From Deltaproteobacteria bacterium (lineage in GTDB: Bacteria; Myxococcota_A; Polyangia; Polyangiales; Ga0077539), in NCBI GenBank assembly GCA_947477565.1, contig CANJUR010000006.1, forward strand, positions 70,668-134,667: a stretch of DNA of 64,000 nucleotides. Reading direction: 5' to 3'. Of this stretch, positions 12,662 to 13,693 are shown piece after piece. A program made the translations under genes and the position numbers. Every line of letters starts with the position of its first letter. Within the stretch, counting starts at the first letter, position 1. The notes beneath the pieces were generated by a model that ran no database searches, was not told where the DNA came from, and worked only from the letters and a program-made list of their open reading frames with translations.

Positions 12662-13693
12662 TTACTCGAAGCAGTAAACTTCGGCCGCACCATGGATGCC
12701 CACGAGGGCATCGACATACTCCAGAAAGGTCGCGCGGCGCCGCATCATCGCGCGGAGTTGCACCTCGCTGAGCAGCGCCTCGTGGCCGTCGGCATCGTTG
12801 GCGATCGTCCGGCGAAGGGACGCGAGGGTCATCGCCCGCACGTGGTCAACAAACCTTCGCGAGAAGCGCTGCACTCGCTGAAGAAACGAGAAGATGATCT
12901 CCATCTTCCAGTGAGGCATAGGCTCGAGGAAGCCGCCGTTGTTGTCGCGGTATACGAGGCCGCCGTGAGCATCGACGAGGGTGTTGGTGCCGTGCCAGCG
13001 GTCCCAATTTCCGATGATGAAATCGTAAGAGATCAACGTGGAGATCTCCTCCGCGCGGCGGAGGGAAGTTGCGGGAATTTCGACCCCGACGACCAGTTGG
13101 TTGGTCCACTGGGTGAGCGCCTCGCCGGAGAAGATGCCGGCGCGGTGGAGCACCGGGACCCAGTAGATCATCGCGCCGCGGGCCCACCCGTCGCGGAACA
13201 GGAGTCGAGAGGCATCGATGCCAACAAGTTCTCCGCGCGCGACGCGACGGAAGACGGCCGGGGGAACGCGATCGAGACCCAGCATCTGCGCAACACGGAA
13301 GGCGCCGATTTCTGCCCGCCAGTGGTCCACGTGGCGGGTCTCTGCGGGCTTGAAGGCTCCATCGATCGCGCCGTCGAGGTCGCATCGGAGGTTGATCGAG
13401 GTGTTGCCGACTTCACGCGCAGACTGAATCGGGGACTCCTGCAGCGCCCGCACGATATCGTCCTCCACGACGTCACCGTAACGTCGGGCCTCGACATCGT
13501 AGGGATTGGGGGGCAGCACCACCGGCTCCCCTGCGCGGACGCCGACGCCCGATGGGGCCGCGACCTCACCGAAAGGATTCGGTGGCAGGGAGTCGGTGGA
13601 CAGAGCGGGTGGGGTCTGCGCTCGCGACCGTGCCGAGCGCATTGCGATAGCGCTGAGGCCGAAGACGATCATTTGGCGGCGGGAGACGGTCAT
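12662..13693 (-). CDS. Secreted Fam20C-like (Golgi casein kinase-like) protein kinase-fold protein
   Basis: N-terminus MTVSRRQMIVFGLSAIAMRSARSRAQ (signal-like, contains an RR pair). GAFKPAE...HWRAEIGAFRVAQMLGLDRVPPAVFRRV, DFIIGNWDRWHGTN and YRDNNGGF align by eye with Fam20C motifs FKP / [20 protein letters not shown] / [11 protein letters not shown] / LDNGRGF. Confidence 0.65.
   Translation of the reverse strand: MTVSRRQMIVFGLSAIAMRSARSRAQTPPALSTDSLPPNPFGEVAAPSGVGVRAGEPVVLPPNPYDVEARRYGDVVEDDIVRALQESPIQSAREVGNTSINLRCDLDGAIDGAFKPAETRHVDHWRAEIGAFRVAQMLGLDRVPPAVFRRVARGELVGIDASRLLFRDGWARGAMIYWVPVLHRAGIFSGEALTQWTNQLVVGVEIPATSLRRAEEISTLISYDFIIGNWDRWHGTNTLVDAHGGLVYRDNNGGFLEPMPHWKMEIIFSFLQRVQRFSRRFVDHVRAMTLASLRRTIANDADGHEALLSEVQLRAMMRRRATFLEYVDALVGIHGAAEVYCFE

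Follow-up and report, generated by a model that had tools for sequence, protein, structure and literature searches.

In animals, Fam20 kinases carry out most of the phosphorylation of secreted proteins, and their loss leads to bone and enamel disease in humans. The family (Pfam PF06702) includes the Golgi casein kinase Fam20C, the xylosylkinase Fam20B, and the pseudokinase Fam20A. FAM20 has been called metazoan-specific (PMC9758233) and "conserved in the animal kingdom" (PMC7948968, PMC5865150), and reviews give the Fam20B sugar kinase as its earliest form (PMC7948968, PMC5865150). The sole bacterial relative discussed in the Fam20 papers searched is the much more distant CotH (PMC7821199). 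The window analysed here is a stretch of 64,000 nt of Deltaproteobacteria bacterium (assembly GCA_947477565.1, contig CANJUR010000006.1, positions 70,668 to 134,667 of the forward strand). One of its genes probably encodes a real, active, and exported kinase of the Fam20 superfamily, and no description of this bacterial or myxobacterial family was found in the literature searchable here. A preliminary description of the locus had stated that such kinases are barely characterised in bacteria, which fits the papers that restrict FAM20 to metazoans (PMC9758233, PMC7948968, PMC5865150). The gene and the core of its product are located as follows.

12662..13693, minus strand: complete gene of the Fam20-like kinase, predicted to be exported, 343 amino acids (aa), stop codon at 12662-12664 (open reading frame and translation)

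12665..13486, minus strand: Fam20-like kinase core, aa 70-343, with N-lobe strands within 89-116 and helix alphaC at 124-137 (predicted local distance difference test (pLDDT), Foldseek, hhalign, and hmmsearch)

Translation of this open reading frame gives exactly the 343-aa protein quoted in the preliminary description. Position and product were correct there, but the strand was missing, and the gene lies on the minus strand. The identical product is predicted by public gene callers on 24 metagenome contigs, with no Pfam annotation on record. Third-position GC of the gene is 0.79, similar to that of the neighbouring genes.

Single-sequence scans against Pfam and NCBIfam gave nothing usable, so family profiles were needed: in Pfam, FAM198 was the sole match (E=0.23, 10.7 bits against a cut-off of 25), and NCBIfam returned no family for the window protein. 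When the single sequence was compared with the Protein Data Bank (PDB) in phmmer, FAM20A (E=1e-5), Fam20B (6e-3), and FAM20C (0.055) were matched, and no other kinase family. A first homology search yielded 86 clusters of close relatives, and a 49-sequence alignment made from them was used as the family profile. In hmmsearch against the PDB, this profile matched only Fam20 chains, with E=1.6e-17 to 1.5e-8, and nothing else at E<=1. The individual values were 1.6e-17 for FAM20A, 2.2e-17 for FAM20C, 2.4e-15 for hydra Fam20B, 7e-14 for zebrafish Fam20C, and 1.5e-8 for C. elegans Fam20. The alignment spans residues 76-338 of the window protein, and hydra Fam20B is matched unbroken over 77-338. In hhalign, the comparison with 18 animal Fam20B sequences gave 99.6% probability and E=1e-24 over 274 columns, pairing residues 75-343 of the window protein, that is up to its C-terminus, with residues 90-413 of hydra Fam20.

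The AlphaFold2 model computed on the family alignment has a mean pLDDT of 84.9, with the core 70-343 above 90. The core contains N-lobe strands at 89-95, 101-106, and 111-116, helix alphaC at 124-137, and a helical C-lobe. In the Foldseek search against the PDB, ranks 1-27 were all Fam20A, Fam20B, or Fam20C structures (E 6.5e-12 to 1.5e-9), with TM scores of 0.55-0.61 in which about 65 disordered residues are counted against the score. The second tier was opened by the type II phosphatidylinositol 4-kinase PI4K-IIalpha (E=1.4e-7), followed by phosphatidylinositol 3-kinases (PI3Ks), and no HipA, CotH, or APH structure was among the 50 matches listed.

The 49 relatives were also scanned with Pfam one by one. 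Fam20C matched 40 of the 49 and FAM198 33, HipA_2 and PI3_PI4_kinase two each (the latter with E about 0.1), and CotH (at E<=1) and APH none. The Fam20C scores were mostly 14-20 bits; only P0038 passed, with 28.6 bits, and a true Fam20B scored 273.8 bits. The 25-bit cut-off of FAM198 was barely reached by three relatives. A few members narrowly exceed the cut-offs of the Pfam models, so some are probably present in domain databases, without comment. The HipA_2 matches were weak (22-24 bits, under the 27-bit cut-off), lay in the catalytic-loop region, and came from a few distant relatives. Membership in the HipA, APH, CotH, or PI3/PI4-kinase families was rejected, as the best profile and structural matches are Fam20. 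The Fam20C-like core proposed in the preliminary description is in this way borne out, being favoured by profile-profile alignment, PDB profile search, and Foldseek alike, with a similarity well above what chance would give. Moreover, the human FAM20C chain 5yh3_C contains all four Fam20C motif strings quoted there, among them the one starting with ALFKP and LQQCCRIRKSTY, and these are aligned with the corresponding bacterial segments.

The bacterial protein and animal Fam20 have the same fold and are homologous over the whole core. They have in common the motifs FKP, AEIxAF...RVPP, GxxIxWxP, DFxIGNxDR, DN..F, and a C-terminal (D)RR, and the bacterial protein retains the four catalytic residues (Lys, Glu, and two Asp). 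An N-terminal signal is present on both, and Fam20 works outside the cytosol, as is predicted for the bacterial kinase. The bacterial protein is without the N-terminal segment of Fam20, its insertion of about 13 residues in the Kbeta3-Kalpha3 loop, and the Cys-rich insertion of about 50 residues which precedes GAxIxWxP. The bacterial cores have a median of 0 cysteines, whereas eight are invariant in the Fam20B alignment, and the conserved disulfides are missing. For the bacterial kinases, export by Tat (twin-arginine translocation), Sec, or lipoprotein signals is predicted, in contrast to the endoplasmic reticulum and Golgi location of animal Fam20.

To place the family, C-lobes were compared over 138 columns and a neighbour-joining tree was computed. 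Identity among animal Fam20A, B, and C is 41-62%. Between the bacterial sequences and A, B, or C it averages 21-23% in each case (range 14-32%), and within the bacterial set it averages 36% (range 21-69%). Bacterial and animal sequences were split in 100 of 100 bootstraps. As judged from these alignments, the bacterial family is a sister group to animal Fam20 and not a Fam20C orthologue, because the window protein scores below the Pfam threshold, the insertions and disulfides are missing, and the family falls outside the A/B/C clade.

Other relatives are less close or cover less of the protein. FAM198/GASK1 (Pfam PF15051), a Fam20-related Golgi kinase-like family, is matched by 33 of the 49 relatives over the alphaC-RVPP region; the matches cover only a part of the N-lobe, and no solved GASK1 structure was among the matches. 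The CotH spore-coat kinases have a bacterial atypical kinase-like fold of the same broad FAM20/CotH group (PMC9758233) and are described as a bacterial family with a distant relationship to Fam20C (PMC7821199). Fam20 is much nearer to the present family than to CotH, and CotH acts in the mother cell during assembly of the spore coat and not following export by Sec or Tat. Type II PI4-kinases (PI4K-IIalpha and PI4K-IIbeta), the second-best structural neighbours, have a G-N-x-D-R...N-style catalytic loop in common with the family, but they are cytosolic lipid kinases and gave no sequence-profile match at E<=1. The likeness to HipA-like kinases (HipA_2) is weak and confined to the catalytic loop in a few distant relatives, and HipA is a cytoplasmic toxin.

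The active site was mapped from three independent alignments, with FAM20A, FAM20C, and hydra Fam20B, which were in agreement.

13295..13357, minus strand: aa 113-133, AFKPAETRHVDHWRAEIGAFR, with K115, D123, and E128; aligned to the FKP segment of Fam20C and to hydra K133/D152/E157

12983..13024, minus strand: catalytic loop, aa 224-237, DFIIGNWDRWHGTN, with D224, N229, D231, R232, and N237; compared with DFL(I/M)GN(M/A)DRHH of Fam20

12929..12949, minus strand: metal-binding motif RDNNGGF, aa 249-255, with D250; compared with HLDNGRGF of Fam20C (Asp478; PMC5413348) and with hydra D318

K115: beta3 Lys in FKP, equivalent to hydra K133

D123: loop acid, equivalent to hydra D152 and Fam20C Glu306

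E128: alphaC Glu in AEIAAF, equivalent to hydra E157

D231: catalytic Asp, equivalent to hydra D299

D250: DFG-like Asp, equivalent to hydra D318 and Fam20C Asp478

In hydra Fam20 the catalytic base is Asp299 (PMC5865150), and in Fam20C Asp478 is a DFG-like metal ligand (PMC5413348). Glu306 of Fam20C (Glu213 of ceFam20), located in the Kbeta3-Kalpha3 loop, is essential, and it is lost in the pseudokinase Fam20A (PMC5413348, PMC5865150). When 231 relatives were compared, Lys or Arg stood at K115 in 223 of 227 and Glu or Asp at E128 in all 228. In the catalytic loop, D224 was kept in 230/231, N229 in 229/231, D231 in 227/231, R232 in 230/231, and N237 in 227/231 sequences. D250 was kept in 230/231, W178 in 230/230, and R319 in 229/230. 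Conservation of 97-100% at K115, E128, D224, N229, D231, R232, N237, and D250 points to purifying selection on catalysis. The preliminary description had named K115 and E128 as the ion pair, D231 as the catalytic Asp, and D250 as the metal-binding Asp, and all four assignments hold in the three alignments and throughout the relatives. A difference from Fam20 is the canonical Asn N237, which stands six residues past the catalytic Asp in the bacterial family, while none is found there in Fam20.

The part of the protein before the core is divided into a signal peptide and a linker.

13619..13693, minus strand: signal peptide, aa 1-25, MTVSRRQMIVFGLSAIAMRSARSRA, with S-R-R-x-M-I, a hydrophobic region, a basic c-region, and the likely cleavage site S-R-A/Q

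13487..13618, minus strand: disordered Pro-rich linker, aa 26-69, with two P-P-N-P-[FY] motifs (pLDDT below 50 at residues 23-61)

The N-terminus reads MTVSRRQMIVFGLSAIAM-RSARSRA/Q, with the twin-arginine motif S-R-R-Q-M-I, where Tat substrates have S/T-R-R-x-F-L-K, a Gly/Ala-rich h-region, and arginines in the c-region. In the AlphaFold model, residues 5-24 form an isolated helix. Close relatives keep the signal as VSRRxLLALGLGA...AxA-Q, with S-R-R-x-[LM]-[LI] throughout the clade of the window protein, and the predicted AxA-type cleavage site precedes a conserved Gln. A heuristic scan of 193 complete N-termini of the family revealed a signal-type hydrophobic segment in 172 (89%). About 61 of these carry a lipobox (e.g., LLVSAC/D), about 35 carry RR, and the rest are Sec-like. 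The signal-like N-terminus with an RR pair reported in the preliminary description is accordingly present and conserved in close relatives. Different export routes for one and the same domain are a strong argument that the domain works outside the cytoplasm. A cytoplasmic kinase with an N-terminal membrane anchor was considered unlikely in view of the many lipoboxes and of the positive charges before the hydrophobic segment. In the linkers, P-x-N-P-[YF] occurs in 49 of 203 family members (at least two copies in 25), against one core, and it may represent a short docking or sorting motif.

The reading we favour, and hold to be rather probable, is an exported, catalytically competent, minimal Fam20-type phosphotransferase acting on an envelope or secreted macromolecule. 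The N-terminal signal peptide would target the precursor across the inner membrane. As the signal is Tat-like in the clade of the window protein, export there would take place in the already folded state, with Sec or lipoprotein signals in other clades. After cleavage behind Ala25, the core, held on its flexible linker rich in Pro, would reside in the periplasm, on the cell surface, or within the extracellular matrix. A nucleoside triphosphate and a divalent metal would be bound via the K115-E128 pair, D123, N237, and D250, and D231 would serve as the catalytic base in the transfer of the gamma-phosphate to a hydroxyl of the macromolecule. This could be a protein or a glycan, two substrate classes which are not separable within the favoured reading.

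The family is large. In an exhaustive search, 669 clusters at 50% identity were found with E<=1e-3, every one of bacterial size, and 396 of them had E<=1e-10. The kinase family was located at 107 genome loci, 80 of which are listed. Those 80 loci and every named cluster member belong to Myxococcota metagenome-assembled genomes (MAGs), with Polyangiales, Polyangiaceae, Sandaracinaceae, and 'Myxococcaceae' as taxa. Each relative with an organism name is labelled "hypothetical protein". The taxonomy of the distant branches comes from a cluster look-up, and a search seeded with distant relatives gave back just the close ones. The family is diverse and lacks annotation, and all of its named members are from Myxococcota. 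Most Myxococcota MAGs with the gene carry a second paralogue (about 43-46% identity), located on a separate contig with different neighbours (loci L001-L043), as in SCUS01 (L002 and L034) and JADJAE01 (L005 and L036). Recent transfer from an animal, or contamination, was ruled out by the G+C content of 67.5%, the bacterial neighbours, and the Myxococcota loci, as well as by a diversity greater than that of all animal Fam20 and by the split from A/B/C in every bootstrap.

The following genes surround the kinase gene or are mentioned below.

12253..12657, plus strand: YbjN/CesT-like protein, 134 aa (Pfam YbjN E=8.4e-11, plus CesT and TY-Chap1); converges on the kinase gene with a 4-bp gap

13764..14183, minus strand: 4HBT_2 hotdog thioesterase, 139 aa (Pfam 4HBT_2 E=4e-18); 70 bp upstream of the kinase gene, same strand

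10649..12124, minus strand: sigma-54-dependent NtrC-like response regulator (Response_reg, Sigma54_activat, HTH_8)

8241..10643, minus strand: PAS sensor histidine kinase, partner of the NtrC-like regulator (PAS, HisKA, HATPase_c)

14359-18985, plus strand: GldA/GldF/GldG-like ABC operon (ABC_tran, ABC2_membrane, ABC_transp_aux), then a DUF4340 protein

37278-40148 and 40158-42812, plus strand: two tandem paralogous PMT_2-type (GT-C) glycosyltransferases, 956 and 884 aa

The converging YbjN-like gene, the hotdog thioesterase, and the sigma-54 activator with its PAS histidine kinase had all been named in the preliminary description, and all are present. The YbjN-like gene lies tail-to-tail with the kinase gene at 16 loci, with gaps of 3-37 bp and down to 47% kinase identity. 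The same family occurs again 1.3-2.7 kb downstream of the kinase in four distant loci. Its product may be a chaperone, an inhibitor, or a partner of the kinase. The thioesterase is possibly co-transcribed with the kinase, and it adjoins the kinase only in the closest relatives. The NtrC-like regulator is syntenic with the kinase-YbjN pair at 14 related loci and the PAS histidine kinase is present at 11, and this regulatory pair travels with the kinase in the clade of the window protein. The sigma-54 promoter consensus was matched 10 times in the window (20.5 expected by chance) and not upstream of the kinase gene. As no match is near the kinase, a regulatory link to the NtrC-like activator could not be shown. 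Scans for sigma-70 promoters and terminators gave nothing convincing.

In other clades the surroundings are different. At six distant loci (L073 8892-9563 and equivalents), the gene directly downstream encodes a soluble HisKA-HATPase histidine kinase which is small (about 225 aa) and has no sensor domain; the gap is -4 to 33 bp at five of the loci and 252 bp at the sixth. This protein echoes the PAS histidine kinase and NtrC pair beside the window kinase. The same-strand gene directly upstream of the kinase encodes an acyl/lipid-type enzyme in three clades (loci L045-L079, L064-L075, and the window). In a distant clade, in which a small HisKA-HATPase protein is encoded downstream of the kinase, it is an acyl-CoA dehydrogenase (17 loci, gaps -32 to 162 bp, often overlapping), and in another an alpha/beta hydrolase (five loci, overlapping). 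Cytochrome c maturation genes are located near kinase paralogues (L034 8839-9516, L046 516-1400, and equivalent loci). CcmB is tail-to-tail with a 43%-identity paralogue in six loci, and in the distant acyl-CoA dehydrogenase clade CcmC and a small membrane protein lie two genes upstream of the kinase. The GldA/F/G-like operon is divergent from the thioesterase-kinase pair and syntenic in the closest relatives only. The two PMT_2 genes, with 74-81% nt identity in repeated blocks, are 24 kb from the kinase, and no link was shown. A reading of the locus as a defence system was dropped, as PADLOC gave no match for the kinase, the YbjN-like protein, or the thioesterase.

Several observations weigh against an exported, active Fam20-type phosphotransferase. 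We know of no ATP pool in the Gram-negative periplasm, and the phosphate donor is not obvious. One may speculate on loading before Tat export, on ATP from lysed prey, or on vesicle lumens. The window protein has no Pfam Fam20C match at E<=10 and so stays below the gathering threshold of 26.8 bits. Signal-peptide type and cleavage were judged by heuristics only, and no Tat-signal model fired on the window protein in the NCBIfam or Pfam scans. Neighbours differ between clades, and no substrate is deducible from the context. The position of D123 is acidic in the clade of the window protein, but in only 94 of 227 sequences (about 41%) of the wider family, with the alignment of this loop uncertain. 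Finally, of the two lysines that are critical in Fam20C, one is Lys271, and ATP binding is abolished in the K271A mutant (PMC5413348). The position of Lys271 is occupied here by N101, and in the family by V, N, S, or T and never by a basic residue, so nucleotide binding may differ or be weaker. In the Fam20B alignment, the second nucleotide-binding Lys is invariant as K117. A basic residue at position 103, two along the strand from N101 (R/H/K in 201 of 226 sequences), may replace Lys271, as far as the alignment suggests. The expectation in the preliminary description that the protein should be active thus stands in part: four catalytic residues are kept, but Lys271 is not matched, and activity seems likely, not assured.

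A more specific alternative, which we regard as unlikely though the best of the rivals, is a glycan kinase, in which Fam20B-like phosphorylation of a sugar of exopolysaccharide, lipopolysaccharide, or a glycoprotein glycan would take place on the outer side of the inner membrane. The xylosylkinase activity of Fam20B is regarded as the ancestral Fam20 activity (PMC5865150, PMC7948968), and both the unbroken match of the bacterial profile to hydra Fam20B and the hhalign probability against Fam20B are consistent with it. Like Fam20B, the protein has Asp as its loop acid (D123 here, D152 there), and aromatic residues flank the catalytic Asp. These are W230 and W233, the second of which is aromatic in 217 of 231 relatives and occupies the position of the xylose-contacting His301 of Fam20B (PMC5865150). 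However, the sugar-binding residues of Fam20B are not retained, His301 corresponding to this Trp and Lys321 to G253, a position that varies among G, L, A, V, M, and R. Also, Fam20A, B, and C are all at the same distance from the bacterial clade, and no glycan-synthesis neighbour is conserved, although the window contains the two distant GT-C genes.

The second structural tier of PI4K-IIalpha/beta and then PI3Ks suggests a kinase of a lipid or small molecule, which would phosphorylate a membrane lipid or an acyl-derived metabolite like the related type II PI4-kinases. The upstream acyl/lipid enzymes of three clades (4HBT thioesterase, acyl-CoA dehydrogenase, and alpha/beta hydrolase) would fit such a role, and action on lipids was suggested for novel Legionella kinases that cluster with FAM20/CotH (PMC9758233). 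Against this, the sequence profiles find Fam20 only, with no PI4K chain at E<=1, and Pfam PI3_PI4_kinase matches just two of the 49 relatives. The acyl-CoA enzymes are cytoplasmic, while the kinase has an export signal, and as the upstream genes differ by clade, their common theme may be coincidence. A lipid kinase is considered improbable.

Next in order, and with a small chance only, comes a kinase fold without phosphotransfer, either a pseudokinase or scaffold, or an enzyme of AMPylation or glutamylation as in SelO and SidJ. ATP scarcity outside the cytoplasm argues against a turnover kinase. The equivalent of Lys271, needed for ATP binding by Fam20C, is missing, and Fam20A is a pseudokinase with inverted ATP binding on the same fold (PMC5413348). 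Other chemistries on kinase-like folds are known (cited in PMC7948968, PMC10870513). However, the 97-100% conservation of D231, N237, D250, and the K115-E128 pair in 231 relatives is the pattern of an active phosphotransferase, and the basic residue at position 103 could stand in for Lys271.

In type III systems, a gene for an effector is typically paired with one for its chaperone. The YbjN-like neighbour, which is matched by the chaperone models YbjN, CesT, and TY-Chap1, keeps its tail-to-tail position at 16 loci where other neighbours of the kinase change, and it is found nearby in four distant loci; it could be the dedicated cytoplasmic chaperone or inhibitor of a secreted effector or toxin acting in a prey or competitor cell. 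Myxococcota are predators (PMC8538405), and ATP is plentiful inside a target cell, so that such an effector would solve the ATP problem. This explanation is very improbable, since the N-terminal signal is of the classical Sec, Tat, or lipoprotein kind and not of type III, many relatives are lipoproteins that stay on the envelope of the producer, the convergent kinase and YbjN-like genes are not co-transcribed, no conserved secretion-system genes are beside the window orthologue, and there is no PADLOC or toxin-family match.

With the exported Fam20-type phosphotransferase as the favoured reading, a wider picture can be put forward as a tentative possibility, about which we have considerable doubt. 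Myxococcota would possess an old and diverse exported Fam20-type family, the prokaryotic counterpart and sister of the secretory-pathway kinases of animals and possibly their source. In the periplasm or outside the cell, generally considered to lack an ATP supply, its members would phosphorylate proteins or glycans in a nucleotide-dependent manner, and the YbjN/CesT-like neighbour might silence the folded enzyme in the cytoplasm until Tat export.

An exported relative of Fam20 raises the questions of its target outside the cytoplasm and of the origin of the ATP, and the family may serve as a test case for whether kinase-type phosphorylation takes place outside the bacterial cytoplasm and how the phosphate donor is supplied. 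It also provides an outgroup for the origin of the animal enzymes. One possibility to be considered there is that a gene was transferred between Myxococcota and the animal stem; precedents exist among other modification enzymes of animals (PMC8826395). As a large bacterial sister family with an intact catalytic core, and without the animal insertions and disulfides, it would be a minimal and probably easily expressed model of the Fam20 fold.

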